Source of the DNA: an uncultured Pseudohongiella sp.
Lineage (GTDB): Bacteria; Pseudomonadota; Gammaproteobacteria; Pseudomonadales; Pseudohongiellaceae
Direction of reading: 5' to 3'
Assembly (NCBI GenBank): GCA_965212375.1
Contig: OZ243108.1
Location: forward strand, 2,436,353 to 2,500,352
Length of the DNA stretch: 64,000 bases
Shown piece by piece: positions 1 to 54,349 of the stretch (within the stretch, counting starts at the first letter, position 1; every line of letters begins with the position of its first letter). Position numbers and translations under genes: made by a program. The notes below the pieces were generated by a model that was given only the letters and a program-made list of their open reading frames with translations, was not told the DNA's origin and ran no database searches.

Positions 1-267
1 GACGACAAAGAGGCGGCCGAGTCCTTACTTACCAAGCTCAGCGAGTATGGACTGTTTGCAGTTCCACACGGTGAACTGGAGTCTTGGCTAAGTGACCTAG
101 GAGCAACAGGTCATGGCCCCGACTGGCTTGTAGAGATATTTGAGAAAATTGGAGAAGACCCTGACGATCCAGATTTTCTTAAACCAGCCGACGGTGATGT
201 GTGGTCATTTCTTGACCACTTAAACAATTGGTTTACTAATCCAGCGAAGAAAGGCATTCCGAACTAG
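1..267 (+). CDS. C-terminal fragment of an unidentified protein (5' end outside window)
   Basis: Frame +1 is open from base 1 to TAG at 265-267 (88 codons, ...LFAVPHGELESWLSDLGATGHGPDWLVEIFEKIGEDP...). It is absent from the ORF track because the start lies upstream. No family recognised. Confidence 0.5.
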   Translation, partial: DDKEAAESLLTKLSEYGLFAVPHGELESWLSDLGATGHGPDWLVEIFEKIGEDPDDPDFLKPADGDVWSFLDHLNNWFTNPAKKGIPN

Positions 268-282
268 CCAATTAACCATCAA

Positions 283-301
283 ATCAATCAGGGCGTTATA
301 T
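283..301 (+). other. possible degenerate attC right-hand simple site (AATCAAT-CAGGGC-GTTATAT)
   Basis: Same layout as the clearer sites at 2731-2750, 4135-4154 and 8703-8722 (7-mer, 6-nt spacer xAGGGC, GTTAT core). The 2R-like box ends AAT rather than AAC, and no left half was found. Confidence 0.3.
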
Positions 302-349
302 GCCCGAGTTACTCTGAAACATATTTAGAAATACGCGGTGTAGAAAATA

Positions 350-1381
350 ATGGACAAGAAGTACCAAATCTTTGTTAGCTCTACATATGAAGACTTGAAA
401 GAAGAGCGAGATCAGGCCATTAAGGCCGTTTTAGAAATGGGGCACATTCCTGTAGGTATGGAAATGTTTAGCGCAGCTGATGAAGAGCAATGGAAGTTGA
501 TCGCTAGACAAATAGAGGCTACAGATTATTACATAATAATAGTAGGTCATCGTTATGGGTCTGAGACAGCAGAAGGTATTAGCTACACTGAAAAGGAATA
601 TGACTATGCGAAGTCATGTGGCGTTCCAACCCTTGGTTTTATTATTGATGAGAAAGCATCTTGGCCAGCAGTCAGAATTGACAAAGACACTAAGAAACTT
701 AAGAAGCTTGATAACTTTAAAAAGAAAGTAAAATCAAAGCTCGTGCAATTTTGGTCTGGAAAAGAGGATTTGCATGGAAAAATATCAATCTCGTTGGTTA
801 AGGCTATGAATACCAACCCTCGAACAGGATGGTCAAGAGCAGATGATGAGATTGGAGCAAATGTCACAAGAGAGCTGAGCAGGTTAAGCGCCGAAAATTC
901 GAAGCTCCGAGTTGAGAATGCTAGGTTACTTAACAACCAATTAGAGGCAGTTGATGAGGTAAGGGAAGTCGTCAATATCCTTAACGAGAACACAAGAACT
1001 CTAAGGATTCGATCAGGAGCTTCATTTGACACAGCGACTGAGCATGTTCGTACTTTGCTTCAATTATTTTTATCTGCTGCACCAAACCTTATACTAGAAA
1101 ACACTACAGAAGGAATAGCGGCCAATATTGCATATTCAATTGTAGGTACTAAGTATCATAACTATTGGCCTTTTGGAAAAGTAAATGCTGAGCATCTTAT
1201 AGCTGATTTTTCTGCCTTGGATCTAATAGAACCTTCACAGAAAAAACATCCCGTAAGTGATAAGAGCTCATATTGGTCACTGACAAAATTGGGTAAGCAG
1301 CTCCAAAAGAGGTCTCGAAAAATTCAGTTAGAAGAAGGAATCAGTACTTCAGAAGATACTTTAGACGATGAAAGTATATAA
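350..1381 (+). CDS. DUF4062 domain-containing protein (TIR-like N-terminal domain, coiled coil, unassigned C-terminal domain)
   Basis: 343-aa ORF. The N-terminus shows the DUF4062 signature (IFVSSTYEDLKEER...IPVGMEMF...DYYIIIVGHRYGS...GISYTEKEY), followed by a coiled-coil stretch (SRLSAENSKLRVENARLL). Confidence 0.75.
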   Translation: MDKKYQIFVSSTYEDLKEERDQAIKAVLEMGHIPVGMEMFSAADEEQWKLIARQIEATDYYIIIVGHRYGSETAEGISYTEKEYDYAKSCGVPTLGFIIDEKASWPAVRIDKDTKKLKKLDNFKKKVKSKLVQFWSGKEDLHGKISISLVKAMNTNPRTGWSRADDEIGANVTRELSRLSAENSKLRVENARLLNNQLEAVDEVREVVNILNENTRTLRIRSGASFDTATEHVRTLLQLFLSAAPNLILENTTEGIAANIAYSIVGTKYHNYWPFGKVNAEHLIADFSALDLIEPSQKKHPVSDKSSYWSLTKLGKQLQKRSRKIQLEEGISTSEDTLDDESI

Positions 1382-1455
1382 TAAATCAATCAACTCTGCT
1401 CGGAACCTAACCCGCTTTTGAACACACCTCAATCTACCAATAAGTGAGGTGTGAA

Positions 1456-1785
1456 ATGGCAAGACGCAAGCATTACATTTACTACGATGATGATTTTAAG
1501 GCGACTGCTGTGTCGCTTTCGGAGATTCCTGGCGTACTGGCCAAGCACGTGGCTGAAGCGCTAGATATTCATGAAGTCATGCTCTATCGTTGGCGCATGG
1601 AGATGCGACGAGGGCAAATCATGACCAAGAAGAAAAATATAAATATTGATCCTGAAGTAAAGTCAGAGCTCAAGCGTCTCAGAAAGCTCGAACGAGATCA
1701 CAACCTCCTGAAGGAGGAACATGCCCTTTTAAAAAAAGCCATCCAGTTCTCTTCACAAAGAAAGGGGAAGTCTTCGAATTCATAA
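1456..1785 (+). CDS. IS3-family transposase OrfA (HTH)
   Basis: ATG at 1456 inside track ORF 1444..1785. Typical IS3 OrfA with a leucine-zipper-like C-terminus (LKRLRKLERDHNLLKEEHALLKKA). Confidence 0.85.
   Translation: MARRKHYIYYDDDFKATAVSLSEIPGVLAKHVAEALDIHEVMLYRWRMEMRRGQIMTKKKNINIDPEVKSELKRLRKLERDHNLLKEEHALLKKAIQFSSQRKGKSSNS
1731..1738 (+). promoter_or_regulatory. programmed -1 ribosomal frameshift slippery site (AAAAAAAG) of the IS3 element
   Basis: The A7G run lies near the end of orfA. The -1 frame is open from 1737 into orfB (...SHPVLFTKKGEVFEFINQNRDRHSIALMCRVYNVSRHGF...). Confidence 0.7.
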
Positions 1786-1817
1786 ATCAGAATCGAGATA
1801 GACACAGCATTGCCCTG

Positions 1818-2621
1818 ATGTGCCGGGTGTATAACGTCAGTCGCCATGGTTTCAACTCTTGGAAAAGACGAGGTGTATCGACCAGGCGAAAGGAAGACAG
1901 CGAATGGTTTGTTCTGATCAGGCAGATATTTGAAAAACACGATGGCTGCTATGGCAGCCCCAAGATCACTCGAGAGATTAGGAAGCAAGGGTTAAGGATC
2001 GGCCAGAAGCGAGTAGCTCGTATCATGCGGAATCACGGGCTAAAAGCTGTCAAGGCCACACTCTATAAGTCCAGGCCAGGCTTAAAGCGACATACCCGCT
2101 CGCTGCCATGTCTTATTGAAGATATGAGGCTAACCAGGGTCAATCAACTCTGGGTTGGAGATGTCACATACATCAAGCTCAGGGACGGGAGCTGGCAGTA
2201 TTTGTCAGTGATTATGGATCGTTTTAGTAGGAAGATAGTTTCCTGGTCGCTCAGTGATACCAGAGATAGTAAGCTGACATTATCTTGCCTGCAGCGGGCT
2301 GCAAGAAATCAAGGAATCAGCCGAGGACTTATATTTCATTCTGACAGGGGGACTGAGTACCTGGCCGAGGGATACAGAAAACGGCTACGCCAGTATGGGA
2401 TTGATCAAAGCGTGAATCGAGTGATGCGGATGAATGACAACGCATTTATGGAATCATTTTTCCAGCAGTTCAAGACAGAGAAGATCAAACGGATTTTAAT
2501 AAAAACAACTGACCAGCTCAGAGCGATCATTGCTGAGTATATGCGCTACTACAACTATGAAAGGTCTCATTCATCCATTGGGTATATTTCACCCTATGAA
2601 TATGAGTGTAGAATGCAGTGA
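1818..2621 (+). CDS. IS3-family transposase OrfB (DDE/integrase core), expressed as OrfAB fusion
   Basis: 267-aa ORF in the -1 frame relative to orfA. rve-type motifs present (WVGDVTYI..., HSDRGTEY, NAFMESFF...E). Confidence 0.85.
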   Translation: MCRVYNVSRHGFNSWKRRGVSTRRKEDSEWFVLIRQIFEKHDGCYGSPKITREIRKQGLRIGQKRVARIMRNHGLKAVKATLYKSRPGLKRHTRSLPCLIEDMRLTRVNQLWVGDVTYIKLRDGSWQYLSVIMDRFSRKIVSWSLSDTRDSKLTLSCLQRAARNQGISRGLIFHSDRGTEYLAEGYRKRLRQYGIDQSVNRVMRMNDNAFMESFFQQFKTEKIKRILIKTTDQLRAIIAEYMRYYNYERSHSSIGYISPYEYECRMQ

Positions 2622-2730
2622 TAACTAATGGGTGTATGCAAAAGCGGGTTAAGTTCCGACACAGCCTGCTCCGCACGGTTTGCGAATGGCTTCACCATTC
2701 CATCGCAAACCGCGCTCCACAGACTGTGCC

Positions 2731-2750
2731 CATTACTAAGGGCGTTATGT
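2731..2750 (+). other. attC right-hand simple site (2R CATTACT, spacer AAGGGC, 1R GTTATGT); left half disrupted or absent next to IS3
   Basis: Same layout as 4135-4154. It is preceded by a long imperfect stem (2676-2717, CGGTTTGCGAATGG / CCATTCCATCGCAAACCG). GTTATGTG is complementary to CACATAAC at 4052-4059. Confidence 0.45.
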
Positions 2751-2835
2751 GCTTCAACGCGTCAGCTTCCGACCCAAAGCAGACTACTGTGACTTTTTCT
2801 ATTTTTCTTCGTCTAATTCCTAGTAACCCGGAGAA

Positions 2836-3939
2836 TTGGATATGAAGAATTTCGCCTTATTTGCCAGCCTGCTGATTTCACTGACTTTTCCGTTCCCAGT
2901 ACAGAGTCAATCGCCCTCTTTCTCCAATGAGGTCGACAAGCTGCTCGAAAGCACCTTTAGCCAAGCAGATCCAGGAATCGCTGTCGTGATAACAAAGCGA
3001 GGAGAAACAATTTACATGGGGGCCTTTGGCTCGGCTAATCTGGAGCTGCAAAAAGCACTTAATGTAGAGATGCCTTTTGAAATCGCATCAATAACCAAGC
3101 AAATAACCTCAGCGGCAATTCTAATGCTTGAAGACCAAGGAAAGCTGAGCATCAGCGACACGCTATCAAAATACTTTCCAGATCACCCTTCTCCCAATGC
3201 CACTCTTGAGCAGCTCATGCAGAATATCTCCGGAATTTTTGTCCCTGACCACTCAATGGGTTCGAATCATGTACGAGAGGATCTAAGCCGGGAAGATAGG
3301 TATGAACTAATAGTTTCTGGAGCGCCTTATTTCGAGCCAGGTGAAAGATACGCATATAGCAACTCAGGATATTGGCTACTGGGGGATATTATTGAGCAAG
3401 TATCTGGATTACCGTACGGTGAATTTGTTAGTCAATATATATTTGAGCCTTTAGGTATGGCCAACTCACACTACGGTTCTCACAGAGAAATAATTCCTAA
3501 TAGGGTTTCCGGCTATGACTATACTGACGAAGGAATTGTCAATGCCAGCTATACAAGTGAAACGTGGTCGTACTCGGCAGGTGGTTTGATATCTTCTGCA
3601 GTAGACATTGCGAAGTGGAACAATGCTTTGTTTGCCGGGCGTGTCATACCAATATCGAGCGTAGAAAAAATGACAACTCCGGCGATCTTAAATAGTGGAG
3701 AAACAATTCCCTATGGGTATGGGTTAGCTCTAGGAGAATTCAATGGATCTGGAACTGCTGGACACGGAGGTGGACACTCAGGATTTTTAATTCACTCAGA
3801 GCGCTTGATCGATGAAGAGATCTTCGTAGTAGTATTAGCAAATAGTTTCTATGTTACCAATGGGTATCGTCCCCCAGATCCCAAGAATCCTGCTTTAATC
3901 GCAAGACGTCTGGCACAAATGGCAATGGACGAATTATAG
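2836..3939 (+). CDS. serine hydrolase, beta-lactamase/PBP4*-family (secreted)
   Basis: 367-aa ORF with an N-terminal signal peptide, an SxxK motif (SITKQ), a YxN motif (YSNSGY) and an HGG box. Confidence 0.8.
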   Translation: MDMKNFALFASLLISLTFPFPVQSQSPSFSNEVDKLLESTFSQADPGIAVVITKRGETIYMGAFGSANLELQKALNVEMPFEIASITKQITSAAILMLEDQGKLSISDTLSKYFPDHPSPNATLEQLMQNISGIFVPDHSMGSNHVREDLSREDRYELIVSGAPYFEPGERYAYSNSGYWLLGDIIEQVSGLPYGEFVSQYIFEPLGMANSHYGSHREIIPNRVSGYDYTDEGIVNASYTSETWSYSAGGLISSAVDIAKWNNALFAGRVIPISSVEKMTTPAILNSGETIPYGYGLALGEFNGSGTAGHGGGHSGFLIHSERLIDEEIFVVVLANSFYVTNGYRPPDPKNPALIARRLAQMAMDEL

Positions 3940-4052
3940 CGATTTAGGAACAACTGTTTGTTGGAAGTAGATTACACAAGTTACTTCTATGTATGTGTAA
4001 TTCTGGCACGAAGCTGTCTTTAGACCAGAATCCTATTGTAAATGCGACCAAC

Positions 4053-4154
4053 ACATAACAAGCTGTTCCTGAGCGACCAAGGTAAATTGTCACAGCTCTT
4101 GCTTGCACAACCGCCGCGCCAATTCACCTTGGCGCCAGAACAAGGGCGTTATGT
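4053..4154 (+). other. integron attC recombination site (intact, about 102 bp)
   Basis: 1L ACATAAC, 5 nt, 2L GTTCCTG ... 2R CCAGAAC, AAGGGC, 1R GTTATGT. The arms (about 4046-4090 and 4119-4160) are complementary except for an unpaired spacer (AAGC versus GCCCT) and bulged bases. Confidence 0.7.
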
Positions 4155-4206
4155 GTTTCGAAGCGTTGGCTTCTGGCCGATTGCTTCCCTTATTGAAGAA
4201 TAATTA

Positions 4207-5256
4207 GTGAAAGAGAAAATGGAATACTCGCCTCTTGGTAACACTGGGCTCTACGTCTCTCGACTATGCTTGGGAACGATGAATTTTGGGCAGGGCCCAA
4301 TGAGTGCGCGTATTGGCAGTATGGGAGAAAAAGAAGTACAGGAACTGGTTGACCGTGCGTTTGATGTTGGGATCAACTTCTTCGACACGGCAAATCTATA
4401 CACAATGGGCGAGTCAGAGGTGTTACTTGGTAAAGCAATAGGGAATCGACGCGAGGAATCGGTAATCGCGACCAAGGTCTATAATCCCTTTTCAGGTGAT
4501 ATGAATTCGCTTGGAACGAGTAGGAAGGCGATCATGCGTGAGGCAGAGTCAAGCCTCAAAAGGTTGGGAACAGATTATATTGACCTCTACCAGGTACACT
4601 CATGGGATCCGACAACTCCGCTCGAAGAAACTCTTTCAGCACTCGACGACTTGGTAAGAAGCGGCAAGGTTCGTTACATTGGACTATCAAACTTTACCGG
4701 TTGGCAAATCGCGCGAGCTCACGGTATCTCTGAAGCCAGGGGCTTCCATAAGTTTATTTCGGCCCAGTCTTATTATTCTCTGGTAGGAAGGGAGCTTGAA
4801 TACGAGGTGCTTCCTGCTGCCCGCGATTTGCAGGTGGGGATCATGGTTTGGAGCCCACTTGCTAGTGGTTTCCTTAGCGGAAAGTACACGGGAAAGGACG
4901 GGGAACCAGGCAGGCGGACCACGGCTTCATTCCCACCAGTGAGTCAGCAGCAAGGTGATGCAGTTGTCGAGGTGTTAAGGGAGATAGCCTCAGCACAAGA
5001 TGCAACCCCGGCACAGATTGCACTCGCCTGGTTGCTTCATCAGCAGGGAGTCACAAGTGTAATCATCGGAGCGCGCCGCATCGAACAGTTTGAAGACAAT
5101 ATTCGGTCAGTCCAAATCAGCCTATCTGATGACGAAATAGCCCAATTGAATAGAGTTAGCCAGCCGGCAACACCTTTTACATACACGGATTTCAGCCTTC
5201 AGCGCGGTCAAACACTAGAGGAAAGATTAGCTCAAGTGGAAAATTCCGGTAAGTAA
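4207..5256 (+). CDS. aldo/keto reductase family oxidoreductase
   Basis: 349-aa ORF (alternative ATG at 4219). Typical AKR motifs present (GTMNFG, FFDTANLY, LYQVHSWD, GLSNF). Confidence 0.85.
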   Translation: MKEKMEYSPLGNTGLYVSRLCLGTMNFGQGPMSARIGSMGEKEVQELVDRAFDVGINFFDTANLYTMGESEVLLGKAIGNRREESVIATKVYNPFSGDMNSLGTSRKAIMREAESSLKRLGTDYIDLYQVHSWDPTTPLEETLSALDDLVRSGKVRYIGLSNFTGWQIARAHGISEARGFHKFISAQSYYSLVGRELEYEVLPAARDLQVGIMVWSPLASGFLSGKYTGKDGEPGRRTTASFPPVSQQQGDAVVEVLREIASAQDATPAQIALAWLLHQQGVTSVIIGARRIEQFEDNIRSVQISLSDDEIAQLNRVSQPATPFTYTDFSLQRGQTLEERLAQVENSGK

Positions 5257-5471
5257 TACACGGAATCGTTACATGTGGGGGAAAAGACATAAGCGATCTG
5301 ATCAGGAAGCGGAACGTCTCCATCAACAGAAAGAAAGGTTTTCGACGAAAGTGCGCTGAATTTCGGTTCGGAAATTCAAAGCTTACGTCAGCTATCGACC
5401 CAAAACGGACTGAACATCCCGATACGTCGATTTGAGAGAATTATCTGATTCTTACGCGAGTTGTCGCAAAC

Positions 5472-7058
5472 TTGGCTTGGCAGAGGTGCCTTGTGAGAAT
5501 ACTGGAGTGGTTGCTCGTTATTGTTCTGATGGTCAACCTCCTGCCATTTTTAAGCACACGGCTAGGAGAAAAGCTCAGCCGTGCTTTTCTTCTTGCAGTA
5601 CTCGTCGCTCATCTTCTGCTTGAAGGCATGAGATGGCAGATGGCTATTGCCTATCTGCTTGCTGTCGCTACGGTTCTTCTTTCAGTGTTGTCTCTGCCGT
5701 CGCCAACCTGGCTCAAGCGACTTGGGATCAGCACTGCGATTTTACTGCTTGGCCTGTCGGCCGTACTTGGCAGCGTATTCCAAATTAGCCCTATCCCCAA
5801 GCCCAATGGTGCTTATCAGGTTGGTACATTCAGCGGCTACTTGACTGACACTTCGAGGGTGGAAAGGTTCGATCCGAGTAGGAATCGAGGTTTGGAGTTC
5901 CGAATCTGGTATCCGGCTATTGTAAATGACGCAGACAAGTATGAGAAGAACACGCTCTTTAGCGAGCTCTACAGCGGTGGCTCAGATTGGCTTTCACTGC
6001 TATTTGGCTACATGGAGTACATCGAGACAAATTCGTTAGTCCATGCTCCCGTGTCTGCCGAAGGTCCATTCCCGCTCATTCTGTTCAATCATGGCCTCTA
6101 TATGGTAGTGGACGAAAGTCCTCAACTTATGGAGCATCTCGCAAGCCATGGCTATGTAGTGGCTTCACTAACTCATCCGTTTGAAAGCGCAAAGGTCAAT
6201 CGCCCGGATGGAGGCTTCGACAGATTCGCAATGCCAACAGACTATCCAGGAGACGTTGGCTTTACTGGCGAGGAAGTTAGCGATGGAGGTATTGGTAGCA
6301 CGCTGGATCAATACAGAGGCGAAGAGTTCTCTCAGATCATGGCTGCACTTTATGCCTACACGGATCACTTTCACGACGCAACAAGCAATGCCGAGCGAAG
6401 CGCCACTATTCAAGCAGCGCTTAACGACGATAAGATCAGCGTTCTCGGAGAAGTCTTATCAGCGGAAAACCTGGAAAACTTTTTTCGAATAAGACAGCAA
6501 GTACGCAATCGCTCAACGGCGTACTGGGTTGAGGATCAGCAGTTCTTCCTGAATGCTATCTCAACATTCGAGGCGCCCGTTGAAGGGTTCGCTGCGGCAG
6601 TTGATATAAACAATGTCGGAGTGATGGGCTTCTCTTACGGTGGTTCCGCTGCAGGCGCTTTCTGCAAGGTGGATATACGATGTTCCGCAGGGATAAACCT
6701 CGATGGGACCCAGTTTGGATCTGACTGGAATGTATCCGTGCCCGCGCCGTTCTTGCACGTCTATTCCGACACCAATACACACGGCAACGCTTACGCCTAC
6801 TATCCGCCAGGACCAGATTTCCAGGATGTCCACTTGCCTGGCACAGAGCATCAGGATTTCATTGGGGCCTTGGCGATGTTTCCAATCATCAACTTCTTCA
6901 GAGAGGAGGGAAGGTTAAGCTTTCAGGAGATTGCCACGCTTAAGAACGGCTTGGTCTTATCATTCTTCGATGAGTACTTAAGGGGTAAATCTGGAGAACT
7001 TGAAAGCTACTTGCGAGAAACGTCTAATCGTATTCGCGTTTTATACCCCCAGCAATAG
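5472..7058 (+). CDS. membrane-anchored alpha/beta hydrolase (PAF-acetylhydrolase/dienelactone-hydrolase-like)
   Basis: 528-aa ORF with N-terminal hydrophobic helices and a GxSxG nucleophile elbow (GFSYGG). The start codon is uncertain (TTG at 5472). Confidence 0.7.
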   Translation: MAWQRCLVRILEWLLVIVLMVNLLPFLSTRLGEKLSRAFLLAVLVAHLLLEGMRWQMAIAYLLAVATVLLSVLSLPSPTWLKRLGISTAILLLGLSAVLGSVFQISPIPKPNGAYQVGTFSGYLTDTSRVERFDPSRNRGLEFRIWYPAIVNDADKYEKNTLFSELYSGGSDWLSLLFGYMEYIETNSLVHAPVSAEGPFPLILFNHGLYMVVDESPQLMEHLASHGYVVASLTHPFESAKVNRPDGGFDRFAMPTDYPGDVGFTGEEVSDGGIGSTLDQYRGEEFSQIMAALYAYTDHFHDATSNAERSATIQAALNDDKISVLGEVLSAENLENFFRIRQQVRNRSTAYWVEDQQFFLNAISTFEAPVEGFAAAVDINNVGVMGFSYGGSAAGAFCKVDIRCSAGINLDGTQFGSDWNVSVPAPFLHVYSDTNTHGNAYAYYPPGPDFQDVHLPGTEHQDFIGALAMFPIINFFREEGRLSFQEIATLKNGLVLSFFDEYLRGKSGELESYLRETSNRIRVLYPQQ

Positions 7059-7116
7059 TATCGTGATCGGCACAAAGCAGGCCATAGGTCAGAGTATCTT
7101 TGTTAACGAGACCAAC

Positions 7117-7137
7117 ACATAACAATACGCTTTGAGT
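7117..7137 (+). other. attC left half (1L ACATAAC, AATAC, 2L-like GCTTTGAG), separated from its right half by an IS
   Basis: Complementary to 8536-8554 (CTCGAAAGG-ATT-GTTATGA). AACACATAAC (7114-7123) is the reverse complement of GTTATGTGTT (4148-4157). Confidence 0.6.
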
Positions 7138-8500
7138 TGGTCGTGAACCCATATTAGTCATGCAGCCATGGCATTGCTTTTCTGCAAAGCGAATAAATAG
7201 GTTGACTCATCGTAGGGTGTATTGGTCTGCCAGCACCTGAACAGAATACTGATCCACTTGAATGCGAGCATGCAAAGGATTGCCTGGTGTGACTTTCCTT
7301 CGTTGCGCTTTCTGTCATAAAACGCCTTGGCCCAATAGGAATATCGTCGCGTCTGATTAGCCCACTCCACGAAGGTCTGCCTGAGGAACTTGGGACAACA
7401 GTAGCGCCAATGAACCCAAGTCTTGGTGCCGCTGCGTTCCGTGACTGGCGCTACACCAGAGTACCGGGCGATCTCCTCGGCGGAACTGTAGCGCGTTCGA
7501 TCAGTTCCCAGAGCGACAAGCAGGCGTGGTCCGAAGACGGCGCCGGCGCCGGCGCCTGGCAGAGAATCGAACAGCTCATACTCGGCATGAGCCTGGCAGC
7601 GACTGGCGATGTCGAGATCGTATTCCTGGATTGTCAGCAGTAACTGACGGAGCTGCCGGGTCAGTGCGACGGTGCGCTTTTCGAACGGCACTAGAGTGCC
7701 TTCATCGTCCGTCAGGGGCATAGCCTTGCGGATGGCCGTGAGCCGTCTGGCCATGACCTCGGCCCGCCCACAGCGCCGGGACTTGAAGAAGTCCATGAGC
7801 GCCATATCGGACTCGGCCTGAGCATGGCCCAGGGTGGGCCAGCGGATGACGAAGTCACAGAACAACAAGGTATCGATATCGCCAAACCACTGTAATACCT
7901 AGGGATAGTAGGCCTTGAGCGAAGACGTCAGAGCATTGGTCAGATCGACTTTTTGATGCACAAAATCACGACGATCCTCTACAAGCCGCTGCAGAATGCG
8001 GGTCTTTGAATCCTCCGGTGCCAGCGGCCTAAGTGACTCCGGGTGTTTCAGCAAATAGTCCAATTGTAGAGCGGCGTCGGTCGGCTCATCCTTGGCGCCG
8101 CCCTGTAAGAATGAACCCCGATATCTTGCCAGGGCCCTGGGCGAGATCGGGAACAGGGTGATAAACGGGTATTTCAGCAAAGCCGATACTACCGGCCCGG
8201 CCTGGAGCTCCAGGCAAATGGCCACGGGCCGGCCCCGAAATCGCTTCTGCAGGGCGCGGGCCCAGCTGTCAATGGCCTCGGGGGAATGCTGGATTACTCC
8301 ATATTCCAAATCCCCTTTAGGTCCGGCCTTGAGGCAGAAATCATGCTTTTGGTAGGCCCAGTCCAGACCGATACGGGCGGCGAATCGCGGTGTTTGAGAC
8401 TTCATAAAGGCCCCCTGTTGTTGTACAGTTGAGTGGCTGTAGGGGTATGCAGCTTACTTCTTCGAAATGATTATAGATAAGTCGGTGTCACGACGATCTC
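7138..8500 (-). mobile_element. IS110-family (IS1111-like) insertion sequence inserted inside an attC site (boundaries approximate)
   Basis: Carries a DEDD-type transposase. TGAGT is present on both flanks (7133-7137 and 8501-8505). Joining the flanks restores a roughly 70-bp attC-like palindrome. Only weak subterminal repeats are seen (GTCGTGA). Confidence 0.65.
7158..8405 (-). pseudogene. IS110-family transposase interrupted by a single in-frame TAG
   Basis: Track ORFs 7899..8405 (N-terminal DEDD domain) and 7158..7868 (C-terminal Transposase_20-like, GVAPVTERSG) are in the same frame. They are separated only by the stop at 7899-7901 and would read through as 415 aa. Confidence 0.7.
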
Positions 8501-8554
8501 TGAGTATTCGTTAGCGAAGTAAGCACACCCGGTGGCTCGAAAGGATTGTTATGA
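8501..8554 (+). other. attC right half (central region, 2R-like CTCGAAA, 1R GTTATGA)
   Basis: CTCGAAAGG-ATT-GTTATGA (8536-8554) pairs with ACATAAC-AATAC-GCTTTGAG (7117-7136), leaving one bulged base. Confidence 0.55.
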
Positions 8555-8702
8555 GCATCAGGTGCTTCAATTCAATTGTTCGTAGCTACCGGGTGCATAC
8601 CTTCTTTAAGAATACAGTTTTTGGATCTGCAATACTGACCATTCAAGAAGGTCGAACAACTATAATCAGTTCAATCAAGGACAAACCGTTGCACGGTTTT
8701 CC

Positions 8703-8722
8703 CATTAACAAGGGAGTTATGT
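8703..8722 (+). other. attC right-hand simple site (2R CATTAAC, AAGGGA, 1R GTTATGT)
   Basis: Same layout as the other sites. The left half of this site is not confidently located. GTTATGTTCC (8716-8725) is the reverse complement of GGAACATAAC (9002-9011). Confidence 0.45.
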
Positions 8723-8830
8723 TCCTTGCTAAAGAAAGTGCATGAACAAAGACAAATTACAAAATGGGCATCATGAATGTTGTATTAGCGGAAAATTAGC
8801 AGCCGCATTTTAAGAAATACGGAGAAGGTA

Positions 8831-9010
8831 TTGAAACACGATTACAAGAAAGGCATTGGTCTCGGGACCATATTCTTCGTCGCTTTCTGGCTAACATTCG
8901 ATAATCTCGCACTAGGCATAGGGCTGGGAGTCGCGATGGGTGTTGCTCTTTCTGAAACTCCAGAACCAAAGAAAAACAGCGAGAACAATGTCAGTGACAA
9001 CGGAACATAA
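8831..9010 (+). CDS. small hydrophobic protein (59 aa), cassette-borne
   Basis: TTG start preceded by GGAGAAGG. It encodes LKHDYKKGIGLGTIFFVAFWLTFDNLALGIGLGVAMGVAL... The stop codon TAA lies within the ACATAAC core of the next attC. It is below the ORF-track size cutoff. Confidence 0.4.
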   Translation: MKHDYKKGIGLGTIFFVAFWLTFDNLALGIGLGVAMGVALSETPEPKKNSENNVSDNGT

Positions 9011-9079
9011 CAAGCGACTGTGGCGTCAATAACCAGTCTGCTTATTTTTTAGCAGGCCCATTAACAATGGGCGGTATGC
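9005..9079 (+). other. attC-like site (75 bp) with degenerate 1R core (GGTATGC)
   Basis: 1L ACATAAC ... 2R CATTAAC, 7 nt, GGTATGC. There is an internal stem CTGCT/AGCAG. The arms pair poorly, so the site may be decayed. Confidence 0.4.
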
Positions 9080-9102
9080 AAGTTCAGCTGCTACTGTACC
9101 CA

Positions 9103-9315
9103 TCAAGTATAAGAAATATCTAGTAGATCTCCGGGCTTACATTCTAGTACCTCACATATGGCCAGCAATGTGGTGAATCGAATCGCCCTGGCTCTATCAC
9201 ATTTAAGCTTAGATAAATTTGCGAATGAAATTCCTGTTCTTTCAGAAAGTTCAGTCAGTGACATTTGGCGTTGCACCAGTATCAGATCCATGTTGATTTT
9301 GATCCTCGGCTTCAT
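9103..9315 (-). CDS. XRE/Cro-type helix-turn-helix transcriptional regulator (YozG-like)
   Basis: 70-aa ORF (likely start at Met9, position 9291) with an HTH (MSLTELSERTGISFANLSKLK). Confidence 0.75.
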   Translation of the reverse strand: MKPRIKINMDLILVQRQMSLTELSERTGISFANLSKLKCDRARAIRFTTLLAICEVLECKPGDLLDISYT

Positions 9316-9340
9316 TTATGCGTCCCACTAACCACATTGT

Positions 9341-9400
9341 TATATCGATAATAGTGCCATATATATCGATTAGCAACATATTTATATTGATATTCGATAT
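9341..9400. promoter_or_regulatory. three ATCGAT-centred palindromes in the divergent promoter region (candidate operators of the XRE regulator)
   Basis: TATATCGATA (9341-9350), ATATATCGAT (9361-9370) and TATTCGATAT (9391-9400) lie between the divergent genes 9103..9315(-) and 9472..9669(+). Confidence 0.3.
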
Positions 9401-9471
9401 ATTGTTAAGGTAAAGTGGCGTCTCTCCTGTCATTAAGATGGGAGAATTCGGCGATAAACTGGAGGTCATTT

Positions 9472-9669
9472 ATGTTCGCGACGCTTATTACAGTGCTCGG
9501 GATAGCGTTCATTTCAGCTGTTACCTGGGCCAGCTACACGCTTGGCAAAACGAAAACCGAGAATGCGAGAGCTGCAGGAATAATAGGCTTTATGCTTTGC
9601 TTTATTCCTCCTTTTGCTCTTATTTACTTGGTCGTGCTCTTAGTCAAGCCAGAGGTTGATGTTGTATAG
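9472..9669 (+). CDS. small two-helix membrane protein (65 aa)
   Basis: ATG at 9472 preceded by GGAGG. Hydrophobic sequence (MFATLITVLGIAFISAV...GIIGFMLCFIPPFALIYLVVLLV). The track ORF starts earlier, at 9415. Confidence 0.55.
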   Translation: MFATLITVLGIAFISAVTWASYTLGKTKTENARAAGIIGFMLCFIPPFALIYLVVLLVKPEVDVV

Positions 9670-9762
9670 GGATCGCGAGGGACACTAATAGTTTAATAGC
9701 TTAAGAGAAGTTGAAGCTAGTTGCGAGCGTAAAGCTATTAAACTATTAGTGCCCCCTTCAGG
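9669..9762. repeat. 94-bp long-stem hairpin element, copy 1
   Basis: A 23-bp stem (GGGACACTAATAGTTTAATAGCT / AGCTATTAAACTATTAGTGCCCC) around a roughly 30-nt loop. It follows the stop of ORF 9472..9669 directly. Confidence 0.85.
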
Positions 9763-9801
9763 CTCTTAACAAGGGCGCTACGCGGAACAGGAGGATTCTT
9801 T

Positions 9802-10086
9802 ATGTCTCACAAAGAGCTGATAAGCCGCAACAGCGTGTTCGCATGGATAGCTGGTGCCACAGCATTGGTTTTGCTCATTCCCCTCGCTGCGATGCAGGTT
9901 ACTGCTGAAGTTCAATGGACACCAATCGACTTTGCCGTTATGGCATTGTTGCTTTTTGGTGCTGGCAGCTTTTATGTACTGAGCTGCCGCGTGCTTGGTT
10001 CTAGATTTCATCCATTGATCGCGATTACTTTCATCGGACTTGTTCTTTATGTCTGGGCGGAACTGGCTGTTGGCATTTTCCTTTAG
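9802..10086 (+). CDS. small membrane protein (94 aa)
   Basis: ATG preceded by AGGAGG. Three predicted hydrophobic helices. Confidence 0.6.
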   Translation: MSHKELISRNSVFAWIAGATALVLLIPLAAMQVTAEVQWTPIDFAVMALLLFGAGSFYVLSCRVLGSRFHPLIAITFIGLVLYVWAELAVGIFL

Positions 10087-10103
10087 ATTGGCGCCTTGAC
10101 AGC

Positions 10104-10188
10104 GGGATCGCAAGGGACACTAATAGCTTAAGAGAAGTTGAAGCCAGTTGCGAGCGTAAAGCTATTAAACTATTAGTGTCCCCTTCAG
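10104..10188. repeat. long-stem hairpin element, copy 2 (left arm 8 nt shorter)
   Basis: Near-identical to copy 1 but lacks TTAATAG in the left arm. It follows the stop of ORF 9802..10086. Confidence 0.85.
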
Positions 10189-10358
10189 CTCCCTTCAGGC
10201 TCCATATGTGCAAACGAAACATAACACTCAGTGCAATCGCCTCCTCATGGGCACTTGAGCAATTGCCTAGGCCACTTGCAGATCCGCTGCACCAGTCTGC
10301 TCGTCAGAACCCCAAACTAATAGCTCCCCTACTCTTTGCCCAATAACGAGGTGTCAAA

Positions 10359-10589
10359 ATGATTCTGTATTCATTAATTGCTTTTACAATAATCTTGAAT
10401 ATTGGCGTTTCGCGGCATGTGTATCTAAGCAGTCTTAGACTCGGGTATGAAAAGGTAGCTGAGATAGGTCTTATTTGGGTCCTTCCCATCATGGGGGCAT
10501 TGGTGTCACTCTGCATCACTTATCAAAGCCCAGCCAGAGTTCGCGAATACGAAAACATCAACAGATTTTTTTGCATGAAAGAGCATTAA
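10359..10589 (+). CDS. small membrane protein (76 aa)
   Basis: ATG preceded by GAGG. Two hydrophobic helices. Confidence 0.5.
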   Translation: MILYSLIAFTIILNIGVSRHVYLSSLRLGYEKVAEIGLIWVLPIMGALVSLCITYQSPARVREYENINRFFCMKEH

Positions 10590-10746
10590 TCTACGAAAAT
10601 CGACAGCTAACAATAAGGCCAGCGGGAAGCAGCTTGTCTGCCCTATTTGTGGCGTCCCCTGACCAGCTCAAGAGCCACCCTGATTTCACCCTGTGTATAA
10701 TCAAAAGCGTTTTCTGTGTACCATGTTTTCCAGATACACATCAGAT

Positions 10747-10840
10747 GGAAATCGAGAGAGACACTAGTAGTTTAATAGCTTAAGAGAAGTTGAAGCTAGT
10801 TTCGAGCGTAAAGCTATTAAACTATTAGTGTCCCCTTCAG
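10747..10840. repeat. long-stem hairpin element, copy 3, flanked by a 14-bp direct repeat
   Basis: Same element. GATACACATCAGAT occurs immediately on both sides (10733-10746 and 10841-10854). Confidence 0.85.
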
Positions 10841-10886
10841 GATACACATCAGATAGCTCATCCAGCGCAATTAAATGGAGTCAAAA

Positions 10887-10997
10887 ATGAGTGCAGCAGC
10901 AATTGGTGGAATAGTGGCCGTCGCTATAGCGATATTGGTTGTGGTTATATCTTCGAGTTCGAAGAAGAAACCGAAGGATGAACCAAAAGATCCATAG
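10887..10997 (+). CDS. very small single-helix membrane peptide (36 aa)
   Basis: ATG preceded by GGAG. Encodes MSAAAIGGIVAVAIAILVVVISSSSKKKPKDEPKDP. Below the ORF-track cutoff. Confidence 0.35.
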   Translation: MSAAAIGGIVAVAIAILVVVISSSSKKKPKDEPKDP

Positions 10998-11218
10998 ACC
11001 TGGCTCACTCCAAGACACTAGTAGGATAATAAAATAACTGGATAAGTCAGGCACCATCTTGCCTGATTACAACATGTCTTATTTCATTGTACGCCCGACT
11101 GTACTCATCGCACGGCAATGAGATCAGCCCCGCCTCGGGCCCTCAGGATATGTAGCTACACCTTTTTGGCCGTACCAATGGGTGTTGTTTAAACACGGAA
11201 ATACAAGGGTCTTAAAGC

Positions 11219-46806: not shown

Positions 46807-46958
46807 ACTTAACAACTTAACCAGTGTGTCAGAACACAAAGCCCTGCGGGCTCCGCACGACCGGAGAGATTGATTCAGAATTTGGCTGAGCCGAATTCCT
46901 CACCCTTCGGACCACGCAGAAAGCGCACGGTCTGCGCCGCTGGCGCGGCTTTCGAACT
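46807..46958. repeat. dispersed copy of the tRNA-Arg-3'-end-like structured repeat (its first 21 bp are at 45702-45722, displaced by IS30)
   Basis: Aligns with 50941-51104 along its whole length. It contains GCACGACCGGAGAGATT (46855-46871), 16/17 identical to the 3' end of the tRNA-Arg gene. Confidence 0.85.
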
Positions 46959-50920: not shown

Positions 50921-51520
50921 AGTTGAGGACACTGACAACTTAACAACTTAACAACTTAACAACTTAACCAGTATGTCAGTACAAGGAGCCCTACGGGCTC
51001 TGCACGCCCGGAGAGATTGATTCTGAATTTGGCTGAGCCAAAATCTTTACCTTTCGGGTCGCGCAAGAAGCGTGCGGTCTGCGCCGCTGGCACGGCTTTC
51101 GAACTGAGGAGTTCGAACCAAGTCCGCAAGGACTTACCAAACAAAAAAGGGAGCCTGTGAACATTCTTTCGGATCTGTGCGCGGGATCAGGAAGCCTTCG
51201 GCTTCCTCCGGAGAGAGTGATTCAGATTTTGGCTGAGCCAAAATCTTCACCCTGCGGGCCGCGCGGAAGGCGTGCGGTCTGCGCCGCTGGCGCGGCTTCC
51301 GAACTGAGGAGTTCGAACCAAGTCCGCAAGGACTTACCAAACAAAAAAGGGAGCCTGTGAACATTCTTTCGGATCTGTGCGCGGGATCAGGAAGCCTTCG
51401 GCTTCCTCCGGAGAGAGTGATTCAGATTTTGGCTGAGCCAAAATCTTCACCCTGCGGGCCGCGCGGAAGGCGCGCGGTCTGCGCCGCTGGCGCGGCTTTC
51501 GAACTGAGGAGTTCGAACCA
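50921..51520. repeat. array of three copies of a highly structured repeat with exact 200-bp period, adjacent to tRNA-Arg
   Basis: The cores at 51008-51120, 51208-51320 and 51408-51520 are near-identical. The linkers 51121-51207 and 51321-51407 are identical. The first copy is preceded by (TAACAACT)x4 and carries GCACGCCCGGAGAGATT (51002-51018), identical to tRNA gene positions 51579-51595. Confidence 0.9.
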
Positions 51521-51542
51521 ATTCTCCCCACATACCATCTAT

Positions 51543-51576: not shown

Positions 51577-51653
51577 TGGCACGCCCGGAGAGATTCGAAC
51601 TCCCGACCAACTGGTTCGAAGCCAGTTACTCTATCCAGCTGAGCTACGGGCGC
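51577..51653 (-). tRNA. tRNA-Arg (anticodon UCG)
   Basis: The minus strand reads GCGCCCGTAGCTCAGCTGGATAGAGTAACTGGCTTCGAACCAGTTGGTCGGGAGTTCGAATCTCTCCGGGCGTGCCA. It folds as a 77-nt cloverleaf with anticodon loop CTTCGAA, an encoded CCA and a G1-U72 wobble. Confidence 0.9.
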
Positions 51654-52075
51654 GTGATTTGGTACTTTTATGTTGTTGGTGCCTGCGGCACCTCGGAGAC
51701 ATCCGCCTCCGTTTCCCTGCCCGGCCAGCAACCCAAGCAAGGGGCGGAATTATAAAGGCTTACGCGCGAATTTCCTAATTCAGCGGGGAATCTGTTTGGT
51801 CGTAGGTACTGTACAGGGATTAGACAAGTATCCCTTCAAATTATTGGGATCTGTGTCAAAATTCCTACAATTTACTGGTGCTGGCCATTCACTTGGGGGC
51901 GAAGTTCGACTTATTCTATGGTCTTTGTTCGTCCGAATTCATGGAAGGAAGTCGGTAGTGGAGGTGTTGCCGCGCAGGCTTTCGCAGCGCCATTGCCCCC
52001 CACAGGTAGGGATAGTTCCCTGCTGACGGCCTCAAATCAGTGGCTTTCGGCACCCGGAGCCCGGCATTGACCTGC

Positions 52076-54349
52076 ATGAGACAAGTTCGATTGATCTACT
52101 TTTGTAGTGTTATTGCCTGCCTGCAAATTGCAGTCTCAGCATCTGCAGTCCTCGCGGCGGAACAGGAGCAATCAATTGACGCGCTGCTTGTATCTGGCAG
52201 TGGCGGCCTTGCTACCTGGACGCAGAACTACAACGAACAGCTGCGGAGTCTGCTCGGACCGGCGCTGAGCAGCAATGTCACTCCGGAATTCCTCCCCCTG
52301 ATAGATTCCAGTCCTGAAGATCGCGAATTGATTGCTCGCTCGCTGGCGCTCAAGCACAGCAACCGGGAGATAGACCTGGTAATTGCGGTTCTTATCGAAG
52401 CGAATTCCTTCATTCACGAGTACGGCGATTATTTTGCCCCGGATGCAACAGTCTTGCATGTCCTGCCCGGACCAGATATCGCCGAAAGCGCGGGCGATCG
52501 ACCCGATCGTGCAGTCCTGACCAGCGCCATCAACCTGGCCACTGCCAATACTATCGAACTGATCCCGCGATTGTTTCCTGACATGGAGCGAATCTACGTG
52601 GTAGGTGGTGTGGGAGAGGGTGACGCCAGCTACATGAGCCGCTTTCGCGAGGTAGCCGCGAATACGGAGTCGAACCTTGATTTTCAGTATCTGACCGGCT
52701 TGCCGCCGGATGACCTGGTGAATGAGCTCAACAGTGCGCCGGCCAACAGCGGGGTCATCATGACCATCTACGATCTGGACAACACCGGACAACTGCAACA
52801 AACCATGTCCGTGACTCGGCTGATGGTAGATAACATCGATTTACCGGTGTTCGCGATGAACGATACCCAACCACCGGCGGGCGCCACAGGGGGCAATGTC
52901 ACCACCACCGCCGCCTATGCCCGGTCAACCTACGAGCTGATCCAGCGCATCCTGGCCGACGAAATCCCAACCCAGCCAGTCACCGCCGGCACGGAATATA
53001 TGTTTAACGGCCAGCAACTGGATCGTTTCGATGTGAGCCGCAGTCGTTTGCCGGATGACAGCATTGTTATTAATGACCAGCCAAATCTGTGGCGCGACTA
53101 TCCGGGCTGGATCGCTCTGGGACTGGGCATTATTATCGCGCAGCTGGCCCTGATCGGCCTGATGCTGGAAGCCCGGCGTCGCAGCCGGGTAGCCGAAGAA
53201 GCGCTCCGCCATACCCAGAAAATGGAAGCGCTGGGCGATCTTGCCGGCGGGATCGCGCATGACTTCAACAACATCCTGATGGCCATCATGGCCAACGCGG
53301 AGCTGGCCAAAACCACGCTGAACGAGCCCCAAAAAGCCGATTCCCGGCTCAGCAATATTCTCTCCGCCAGCAACCGGGCCAAGGGCCTTATTTCCCAGAT
53401 TCTGTTGTTCAGTCGCCAGGCTGCGACCCAGTCCTTTGAAGAAACCGACCTGTCACCAACGCTTCAGGAGTCCGTTGACCAGATTCGCGCTTTTTTACCT
53501 CGCAGCTGCGAGGTAACCCTGGAATGCGATGCTGAACTTGCCCCGGTGCGCGCGGACACCAACCAGCTGCATCAGGCGTTCATGAATATCTGTATCAATG
53601 CCCAGCACGCCATGAACAATGAAGGGACGATCCACGTGACGGCCCGCAATGTGCAGATCGACTACGAACAGAAAATCTACGGACAGCACCTGCCAGCTGG
53701 CAACTACGTCGCCATTACGGTCAGCGATACCGGCAAGGGCATCGCGGACAAGGACCTGCATCATATATTCGAGCCCTTCTATTCCACCAAGCCCTCCGGC
53801 CGCGGCACCGGCCTGGGTCTTGCGCTGGTGTACCGCATTGTCCGTGCTCACTACGGCTTCATCGATGTGGAAACCAGGCCCGGCGAAGGCACCACGTTTA
53901 CGATTTATCTGACCGCCTCATCCCAACCGATGAGTCAGCTGGCCGGTACCCAGGATACAGATACCAGTGCTGGTCGCGGCCAGCGCATTATGCTGGTGGA
54001 TGACGATGACATGGTGCTGGATGCGACCGAGCGCATCCTGACGCGTAAAGGCTTCAGGGTTGATGCTTTTCGCAGCCCCCTGAAGGCTCTGGAAGCAGCA
54101 AAGAAAAACCCGCGGGCCTGGGATCTGGTGTTTACCGATTTGTCGATGCCGGAGATGGATGGCGTGCGGCTGGTCACCCAGATTCGTCAGTTACGGCCAG
54201 ATGTTCCGGTCATTCTCTATACCGGTTACCTGGATGCGGTTGAGTCCATCGAGATCGAGAATCTGCGTATTCTCAGCAAGCCCAGCCGGGTCGATGAGAT
54301 AGCCAGTGTCGTCAACGAGTGCCTGTCTGTATCCGAAAGCAGTTATTGA
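52076..54349 (+). CDS. hybrid sensor histidine kinase/response regulator with periplasmic ABC-substrate-binding-like sensor domain
   Basis: ATG at 52076 (track start is 52040). The periplasmic domain of about 330 aa is followed by a TM helix, a HisKA H-box (HDFNNIL), an HATPase domain (GxGxG) and a C-terminal receiver (DLSMPEMDG). Confidence 0.85.
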   Translation: MRQVRLIYFCSVIACLQIAVSASAVLAAEQEQSIDALLVSGSGGLATWTQNYNEQLRSLLGPALSSNVTPEFLPLIDSSPEDRELIARSLALKHSNREIDLVIAVLIEANSFIHEYGDYFAPDATVLHVLPGPDIAESAGDRPDRAVLTSAINLATANTIELIPRLFPDMERIYVVGGVGEGDASYMSRFREVAANTESNLDFQYLTGLPPDDLVNELNSAPANSGVIMTIYDLDNTGQLQQTMSVTRLMVDNIDLPVFAMNDTQPPAGATGGNVTTTAAYARSTYELIQRILADEIPTQPVTAGTEYMFNGQQLDRFDVSRSRLPDDSIVINDQPNLWRDYPGWIALGLGIIIAQLALIGLMLEARRRSRVAEEALRHTQKMEALGDLAGGIAHDFNNILMAIMANAELAKTTLNEPQKADSRLSNILSASNRAKGLISQILLFSRQAATQSFEETDLSPTLQESVDQIRAFLPRSCEVTLECDAELAPVRADTNQLHQAFMNICINAQHAMNNEGTIHVTARNVQIDYEQKIYGQHLPAGNYVAITVSDTGKGIADKDLHHIFEPFYSTKPSGRGTGLGLALVYRIVRAHYGFIDVETRPGEGTTFTIYLTASSQPMSQLAGTQDTDTSAGRGQRIMLVDDDDMVLDATERILTRKGFRVDAFRSPLKALEAAKKNPRAWDLVFTDLSMPEMDGVRLVTQIRQLRPDVPVILYTGYLDAVESIEIENLRILSKPSRVDEIASVVNECLSVSESSY

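Follow-up and report, generated by a model that had tools for sequence, protein, structure and literature searches.

The stretch of DNA considered here is a 64-kb window (the whole of the sequence analyzed) from the chromosome of an uncultured Pseudohongiella sp., contig OZ243108.1; the first 11 kb of the window carry an array of integron-type gene cassettes. Its surroundings are chromosomal: flhA, flhF, fliG, a TonB-dependent receptor gene, and housekeeping genes. The FlhA protein matches proteins of metagenome-assembled genomes named Pseudohongiellaceae at 99-100% identity, in agreement with the host family. G+C content per kilobase is 0.42-0.50 in 1-11 kb versus 0.51-0.63 in the remainder of the window, and once two insertion sequences (ISs) are removed, the array has 45.3% G+C and the remaining window 56.4%. 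The open reading frames (ORFs) of this part lie on the + strand, except for an IS110-type transposase gene and one helix-turn-helix (HTH) gene. Both the AT-richness and the predominance of + strand ORFs had been pointed out in an earlier note on this DNA and are borne out by the counts, and the attC-type motifs listed there are present at the coordinates given. One such motif, AAGGGCGTTATGT, is found exactly at 2738-2750 and 4142-4154 and with one or two mismatches at 289-301 and 8710-8722; allowing up to two mismatches, there are seven matches in the window versus 1.19 expected, and the three that fall outside the array are at chance level. As argued below, the segment from position 1 to about 11.1 kb is best read as the distal part of a chromosomal integron-type cassette array, decaying and probably without an integrase in cis, a reading to which a probability of roughly 0.8 can be assigned.

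The argument begins with the palindrome at 4053-4154. Its elements are ordered R'' ACATAAC, 5 nt, 2L GTTCCTG, and, after the central part, 2R CCAGAAC, AAGGGC (6 nt), and R' GTTATGT, in agreement with the general order of attC sites, R'' (RYYYAAC), 5 nt, L'' ... L', 6 nt, R' (GTTRRRY). Folding of the bottom strand (-31.8 kcal/mol, z score -6.68, with 0 of 200 shuffled sequences as stable) yields a 10-bp R box, an unpaired central spacer, and an L box, together with single-base bulges of T, T, and G. All three bulges lie on the R''/L'' side, which is where the extrahelical bases of attC sites are located. Thus, the paired arms, unpaired spacer, and bulged bases that had been proposed for this site from inspection are recovered by the fold.

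Rfam contains no attC model, and two covariance models were built. The first, R1, was trained on 20 attCs, all outside the window. Since part of that set had been found through similarity to the window, the second, R2, was trained solely on attCs of other organisms, which were reached by homology to the protein of an OLD-family nuclease cassette (loci L004, which has a full intI gene, L005, L007, L008, L011, and L032). When both strands of the window (128 kb of search space) were searched with filters off, R1 identified 4053-4154 (50.9 bits, E = 9e-10) and 8660-8722 (43 bits, E = 7e-8), followed by a third match at 270-301 (18.2 bits, E = 0.058) and no other below E = 1. R2 ranked the same two sites first and second (26.6 bits, E = 1e-3, and 21.9 bits, E = 0.013), with the next match at E = 2. 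The check by covariance model that had been suggested for 4053-4154 therefore gave a significant match with either model. In the training set itself, the L-box pairs are 94% paired, with compensatory changes in five of six pairs, and the covariation score is 0.357 versus 0.127 for shuffled alignments, none of 500 of which reaches it; sliding the partner columns makes the score collapse. Within a single site, pairing is poor at the outer three positions of the R box, as expected because in an array those R' bases belong to the next cassette. Hand-written attC grammars also found 4053-4154, but they missed most of the true attCs of the L004 control and gave chance matches in core genes, and they were abandoned.

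In the proposed mechanism, each unit would once have been a circular cassette, inserted by IntI through the folded bottom strand of its attC at the G/TT of R'. Because insertion occurs at the G/TT of a circle, the start of a cassette should be complementary to the bases that flank R'' in the attC at its own downstream end. The earlier note had reported this agreement, and it holds for the pairs 2744/4050 (9 of 10 bases), 4148/7114 (10/10), and 8716/9002 (10/10). As GTTATGTG is common and is present in both of the first two pairs, only the bases beyond the 7-mer are informative there, and these match at 8/9. The same logic is seen, with other sequences, in L043, L045, and L054. In addition, the two strong attCs have the same orientation, lie 3.0 kb apart after removal of the intervening IS, and are accompanied by co-oriented ORFs. 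By sequence and predicted fold, then, 4053-4154 is an attC site and the cassette organization is real.

Two further conserved segments adjoin the sites and fall beyond the canonical limits of attC. One, a module of about 48 nt, lies directly upstream of R'' in unrelated cassettes (4005-4052, 7069-7116, and L044:1509-1555, 74-86% identity), and the other is a conserved leader of about 35 nt directly after R' (2751-2785, 4155-4178, and 5386-5411).

Most of the array is damaged. Among about nine junctions, one attC is intact (4053-4154), one is split by an IS3-family element, and one by an IS110-family element; the remainder have an internal deletion (270-301), a change of GTT to GGT (9005-9079), or survive as half-sites (right, 9763-9783; left, 10219-10225). 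The IS3-split site has a degenerate left part (R'') at about 1373-1396 and, being split, was not scored by the models. The degenerate attC at 9005-9079 was detected by neither R1 nor R2, and the sequence and the covariance search agree with the earlier description of the sites beyond 9.1 kb as degenerate. For the candidate junction at 5288-5378, there is neither a covariance model match nor a fold signal, making it a weak suggestion only. The HTH_26 gene and the 73-aa membrane ORF that follow 9005-9079 are divergent around an AT-rich palindrome (9361-9402), inside what would be expected to be a single cassette.

Table 1. Features of the first 11 kb of the window
Feature	Position	Strand	Evidence or remark
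3' end of OLD-family (ATPase-TOPRIM) nuclease gene, cassette-borne	1-267	+	Pfam AAA_21/AAA_15/OLD-like_TOPRIM; PADLOC Old 1.4e-20
attC remnant with internal deletion: AATTAAC-CATCA-AATCAAT joined to CAGGGC-GTTATAT; no 2R or central stem	270-301	+	R1 18.2 bits, E 0.058, center deleted
DUF4062 protein gene, 343 aa, cassette ORF	350-1381	+	Pfam PF13271, 9e-32
IS3-family IS (orfA 1444-1785, orfB 1818-2621), within left half of attC	1397-2661	+	HTH_Tnp_1, rve; 29-nt terminal inverted repeats 1400-1428/2631-2659
Right part of IS3-split attC: stem 2660-2685/2703-2728, 2R CCCATTACT, AAGGGC, R' GTTATGT 2744-2750	2662-2750	+	
Beta-lactamase-family serine hydrolase, 367 aa, cassette ORF	2836-3939	+	Pfam PF00144, 1e-55
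Intact canonical attC, 102 nt	4053-4154	+	Fold z -6.68; R1 E 9e-10; R2 E 1e-3
Aldo/keto reductase, 349 aa, cassette ORF	4207-5256	+	Pfam PF00248, 7e-80
Possible fully decayed attC junction, weak (ACATAAG ... AAAGC-TTACGTC)	5288-5378	+	5386-5411 85% identical to post-R' leader 2760-2785
Alpha/beta hydrolase (PAF-acetylhydrolase-like), 528 aa, cassette ORF	5472-7058	+	Pfam PF03403
Left end of E-type attC: R'' ACATAAC + spacer AAT	7117-7126	+	Uninterrupted homologue L044
IS110-family (DEDD) IS inserted in attC	7127-8663	-	DEDD_Tnp_IS110, Transposase_20; L052 82% identical over 1-1537
Bridge-RNA-like structured region of IS left end	8443-8601	-	Fold z -4.63; consensus in 5 relatives; guide covariation
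Right part of E-type attC: spacer-2L GTTCAATC ... 2R CCCATTAAC-AAGGGA-R' GTTATGT	8664-8722	+	R1 E 7e-8; R2 E 0.013
Predicted membrane protein, 59 aa, cassette ORF, no Pfam match	8831-9010	+	
Degenerate attC: R'' ACATAAC ... 2R CCCATTAAC-AATGGGC-GGTATGC; crossover GTT to GGT	9005-9079	+	Sequence; repeat family
HTH_26 regulator 9103-9315 (-) and 73-aa membrane ORF 9438-9659 (+)	9103-9659		Pfam PF13443, 9e-19
D1 palindromic repeat copy 1: perfect 24-bp stem, 29-nt loop	9672-9762		Fold z -6.36
attC right-hand remnant CTCTTAAC-AAGGGC-GCTACGC	9763-9783	+	Sequence; weak R1 alignment 9699-9783
Membrane ORF, 94 aa, no Pfam match	9802-10086	+	
D1 copy 2, 8-nt deletion in left arm	10099-10189		
attC left-hand remnant ACATAAC	10219-10225		After D1 copy 2
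Membrane ORF, 76 aa	10359-10589	+	
D1 copy 3, between 13-19-nt direct repeats 10728-10746/10836-10854	10751-10841		
Membrane ORF, 40 aa; last unit of low-G+C region	10875-10997	+	Kept at array end in sister genome L054

The attC occupied by the IS110-family element had previously been placed at 7117-7137 and 8501-8554, an assignment that is wrong. A related array, L044, has the site uninterrupted: L044:1509-1565 corresponds to window 7070-7126 and L044:1563-1634 to window 8664-8737, with nothing between. Because L044 joins both flanks directly, the attC consists of 7117-7126 plus 8664-8722, and the insert is 7127-8663. With the IS removed, the bottom strand of this E-type attC forms a canonical hairpin (z -3.26). 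Furthermore, a relative of the element in L052 is 82% identical across exactly the 1,537 bp of the IS. With this reassignment, the supposed 'empty cassette' at 8555-8716 disappears. As for 8501-8554, it sits within the 5' noncoding region of the IS, in its guide region, and was mistaken for an attC half because the putative guide RNA of the IS copies attC sequence.

The transposase gene of the element runs from 8405 to 7158 on the - strand and encodes the domains DEDD_Tnp_IS110 and Transposase_20. It carries an in-frame TAG at 7899-7901, and the same stop is present in an independent metagenome contig, L001, which is 100% identical. There are 5,965 relatives of the protein in metagenomes at E <= 1e-20, with a typical length of 413 aa; a tblastn search with the transposase against plasmids gave a best match of 51% identity. 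The noncoding ends are of unequal length, 31 nt on the right and 258 nt (8406-8663) on the left, 5' of the gene, and there are subterminal inverted repeats of about 9-12 bp (AGTTnTTCG). A search of Rfam with the noncoding end returned no family.

For IS110-type and IS1111-type elements, a guide logic based on bridge RNAs or seekRNAs has been published [PMC11208160, PMC11187229], and the left end of the present IS has features that fit it. It folds (z -4.63) into an outer stem around two stem-loops with internal loops, an arrangement conserved in five relatives. The candidate guides of the target loop are at 8567-8578 (CAAUUGAAUUGA) and 8542-8553 (CAUAACAAUCCU). The first, on the 5' side, equals the sequence on the far side of the insertion point, and the 3' side, CAUAACAAU (8542-8553), has exactly the sequence of the attC top strand at ACATAAC-AAT, that is, R'' and spacer. 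The donor loop guides, at 8494-8505 (ACUCAGAGAUCG) and 8470-8476 (CUAUAAU), match the right and left ends of the IS plus a TT core. Across relatives, the 5' target guide tracks the left flank of its own copy: 9/9 in L046 (CTTGAACGT) and in L048 (GTTAATTTT), 8/9 in the window and in L052, and 7/8 in L051. In addition, all six insertions examined (the window and five relatives) directly follow xxxTAAC-AA, with the element on the other strand from the cassettes, in attC-bearing arrays. Thus, at the level of sequence comparison, both the boundaries of the IS and the covarying match between guide and target are established.

These findings suggest a model in which transposition of the 7127-8663 element would be RNA guided. 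The 5' noncoding end would encode a two-loop bridge RNA; the target loop would pair with both attC strands at the R''/spacer junction (xxxTAAC-AA/spacer-2L), and the donor loop with the element's own ends. Insertion would then always occur right after TAACAA and in one orientation, making the IS a specialized parasite of attC sites whose attC target sequence would read ACATAACAATCAGTTCAATC. If this is correct, attCs would be inactivated by an RNA-guided parasite, which may drive decay in arrays that lack an integrase.

At L001:1-87, which is 2.1-2.2 kb upstream of position 1, there is the left end of a further IS110-type element, diverged from the first. It occupies a different E-type attC, in which it likewise follows TAAC-AA, and two independent assemblies break near the start of L001 because of it. 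Assemblies of this region were found to end at IS, attC, or D1 repeats.

Elements that home to attC sites have been described before, in what is called the IS1111-attC group; its members reportedly include ISPst6, ISKpn4, and ISPa25 (Tetu and Holmes in 2008 and Post and Hall in 2009 are said to have described them). With this group, whose named members were compared by description only, the window IS shares a DEDD transposase, site- and orientation-specific insertion at one end of the attC, guide segments that match both target strands, and degenerate footprints in chromosomal arrays (a 220-nt remnant in L054); its subterminal repeats of about 9-12 bp are likewise an IS1111-like trait. However, the IS1111-attC group is marked by a long noncoding region downstream of the transposase gene [PMC11187229, PMC11208160], whereas the window IS has its long noncoding region, and with it the putative guide RNA, upstream (258 versus 31 nt), which is the IS110-type layout. 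The seekRNAs of ISKpn4 and ISPst6 are downstream of the gene [PMC11187229]. With its IS1111-like repeats and IS110-type layout, the window IS is a hybrid that may belong to either subgroup. Compared with the bridge-RNA recombinases of the IS621 type [PMC11208160], the window IS is alike in having a left-end noncoding RNA, here a predicted one, with two internal loops, in that each loop has a 5' guide with the sequence of the left flank and a 3' guide complementary to the right flank, and in that a short core, lying within the pairings, is common to the target and the IS ends. It differs in that the target is a structured attC rather than a repetitive extragenic palindrome (REP) or linear site and in that the core is TT rather than CT. 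It can be put forward, tentatively and with rather less than even confidence, that the IS represents a large, apparently undescribed DEDD lineage with an upstream bridge RNA set for the attC R''/spacer, a second attC-homing group, organized independently, beside IS1111-attC, acting in an array whose cassettes were captured by an integrase in trans. Such an element would be a natural example, at the sequence level, of a bridge-RNA recombinase whose programmable loop has been fitted to the recombination site of another mobile system. The covariation across relatives offers testable guide-target pairs, and in annotation, the noncoding ends of such ISs can be mistaken for attC halves.

The attC family of the window recurs elsewhere. 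An exact-pattern scan of metagenome contigs with the attC pattern gave four related contigs. L045 is a 12.3-kb array with 14 attC matches and co-oriented ORFs, in which the R'/R'' pairs agree (e.g., GTTAGCC/GGCTAAC and GTTACTG/CAGTAAC), and L043 has three attCs. The metagenome contig L001, which reaches 2.2 kb upstream of the window, contains four attC matches, and upstream of position 1, the array goes on with at least two more cassettes and another attC; L001 also completes the OLD-family nuclease gene (556 aa, L001:804-2474), of which window 1-267 is the 3' end. In L004, a metagenome-assembled genome of Thiomicrorhabdus, an OLD homologue with 75% aa identity is a single-gene cassette located 1.6 kb from an intI gene whose product has 52% identity to IntI1 over 320 aa; the array there has eight attCs. 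In five more genomes (L005, L007, L008, L011, and L032), an attC likewise flanks the homologue. Homologues with 51-75% identity (L003-L040) are found in Bacteroidota, Cyanobacteria, Acidobacteriota, Planctomycetota, Gracilibacteria, and Proteobacteria. Because they span many phyla and at least six are beside attCs, the OLD-family nuclease is a very widely travelled defense cassette, which the present array has in common with several phyla.

Given these findings, the possibility that the palindromes belong to a generic family of REPs, of miniature inverted-repeat transposable elements (MITEs), or of terminators, unrelated to integrons, can be given a negligible probability. The sites are indeed intergenic imperfect palindromes, and two other repeats, D1 and a REP-like 200-nt unit, do occur in the window. 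However, palindromes of the window attC type are absent from 11-64 kb of the window (53 kb of core sequence, both strands) and, outside cassette arrays, from about 700 kb of fetched loci, which is the outcome of the dispersal check that the earlier note had proposed. Furthermore, the strict layout of R''-5 nt-2L and 2R-6 nt-R' with bulges, the recognition of the sites by a model trained on foreign integrons (R2), the R'/R'' cassette logic, and the use of the sites as targets by an attC-homing IS family all argue against it. The same attC evidence speaks against a horizontally acquired island of a generic kind, such as a defense island, in which attC-like sites would be coincidental. The low G+C content, the ISs, and the OLD-family nuclease would suit such an island, but the OLD gene is a single-gene cassette beside intI in L004, and the unit sizes and co-oriented ORFs are typical of cassettes; this explanation is therefore very improbable as well.

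No match to IntI1 or to the IntI of L004 was found by tblastn in the window, in L001 (2.2 kb upstream), in L042-45, or in L054-61. The IntI1 query matched the intI of L004 at 9e-96; the L004 protein served as the second query. Thus, the statement in the earlier note that the window lacks an integrase is confirmed, and there is none from 2.2 kb upstream of position 1 through the 64 kb, with the start of the array lying beyond. The same note had placed intI, attI, and the cassette promoter Pc to the left of position 1. This finds no support in the 2.2 kb upstream, which contain only more cassettes and the second IS.

The locus can be followed into L054, a sister genome of 4.11 Mb with about 89% nucleotide identity, whose synteny with the window extends from 28 kb to 10,841. 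In window orientation, L054 has flgA, flgM, flgN, pilZ, a conserved gene of 129 aa, and about 350 nt of noncoding DNA, after which the cassettes start: GTTATGTACC, a 141-aa cassette, an E-type attC (73 bits), and a 182-aa cassette. Next come R''+AAT with 220 nt remaining of the same IS110-type IS as in the window, an IS3 remnant, and the right half of an attC, and then a TonB_C cassette, the 40-aa ORF (window 10875-10997), and an NAD-binding gene. Thus, a 3-kb array occupies the same locus, from the pilZ and 129-aa genes to the NAD-binding gene, with entirely different cassettes, and there is no intI on either side of it. In two further relatives, no intI was found from the pilZ and 129-aa genes (113 aa in one) to the end of the contig, about 0.3-0.5 kb into the variable region. 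The locus is therefore old, and its cassette content has turned over fully between the sister genomes. A fixed site without an integrase in cis, together with complete turnover of the cassettes, would imply capture by an integrase acting in trans.

Several observations were made at the left end of these related arrays and within that of L054. A noncoding stretch of about 220 nt after the 129-aa gene by pilZ is conserved (L054:16157-16508, L062:11345-11640), and the variable cassettes start right after it. The first cassette of L054 begins at GTTATGTACC with no hairpin upstream, an attI-like feature, and the integrase gene is absent there. At L054:14635-15079, a 220-nt footprint of the IS right end is joined to an IS3 transposase fragment inside an attC, so that the same two IS families are involved as in the window.

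Taken together, these results can be accommodated by an integrase-less, decaying array at a conserved chromosomal site or by a complete sedentary chromosomal integron whose functional intI, attI, and Pc lie more than 2.2 kb further upstream. For the latter, it can be said that the orientation of the cassettes points to the left, that the array continues upstream for at least two cassettes and another attC, and that one attC is still intact. In addition, cassettes that differ wholly between sister genomes would imply an integrase active since their divergence. However, in L054, the one relative with a fully sequenced array, core genes adjoin the left end without an intI or a remnant of one, and the two other relatives also lack intI between the pilZ and 129-aa (113-aa) genes and the contig end. 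Furthermore, inactivation of most of the attCs would be unusual under an active integrase in cis. A distant integrase thus seems rather doubtful, and the array is assigned, with somewhat better than even confidence, to the clusters of attC sites lacking integrases (CALINs). Past activity of IntI and the present lack of a cis-acting intI are both inferred.

Some points weigh against the picture of a decaying, integrase-less array with its attC parasite. An integrase, attI, and Pc have not been seen, and the recovered sequence, the window plus 2.2 kb upstream, falls short of the start of the array. The IntI1 query was validated solely by its strong match to L004. The sites that pass the thresholds of the models number two, while the remaining junctions rest on partial motifs; between 9.1 and 11.1 kb, there are half-site remnants and D1 palindromes, and the cassette nature is weaker. 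Finally, RNA-guided targeting is inferred from sequence, and the transposase gene has an in-frame stop.

CALINs and the arrays of sedentary chromosomal integrons are said to have been defined with IntegronFinder by Cury et al. in 2016; in a CALIN, no integron integrase is found within 4 kb of the attC cluster. Like CALINs, the window array consists of co-oriented cassettes, mostly without promoters, that each end in an attC with R''-L''...L'-R' and extrahelical bases. It is also chromosomal, is lower in G+C than its host, contains many ORFs of unknown function, small membrane proteins, and the OLD defense cassette, and has no integrase nearby. It differs in being heavily degraded, with one intact attC among about nine junctions. 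Unlike the repeats of Vibrio arrays (VCRs), its attCs are not one species-specific repeat but are heterogeneous, comprising at least three types of 61-102 nt. It is a further example of a chromosomal cassette array, or CALIN, in a marine family that has been little studied, the Pseudohongiellaceae.

The D1 repeat is 91 nt long; its stem of 24 bp is perfect, and its 29-nt loop is conserved. It was considered as a type of attC and rejected, since the stem is perfect and free of bulges and the order of GTT and AAC is reversed. There are three copies and a partial one (11013-11031); in the window, they are confined to the decayed end of the array, from 9.6 kb, between small membrane ORFs. D1 has no Rfam family, and no copies were found in viral contigs or in other fetched loci. 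Copy 3 is missing from the homologous site of L054; because of this and of the direct repeats that flank it, it looks inserted, and D1 is possibly MITE-like.

Other repeats lie far from the array. A GC-rich, REP-like unit of 200 nt is present in 2.6 tandem copies at 51008-51521, beside tRNA-Arg(tcg) (51577-51653, - strand), and once more at 46863-46958, and a short AACTTAAC microsatellite is directly upstream of each unit (50937-50968 and 46807-46822). In L042 (973-1113), the REP-like repeat and tRNA-Arg(tcg) lie beside an array, about 90 bp from its last attC; that array therefore ends at tRNA-Arg(tcg), which is 40 kb from the position of the array in the window. Finally, 52040-54349 and 54485-56794 are two tandem paralogous genes for hybrid histidine kinases of 769 aa.

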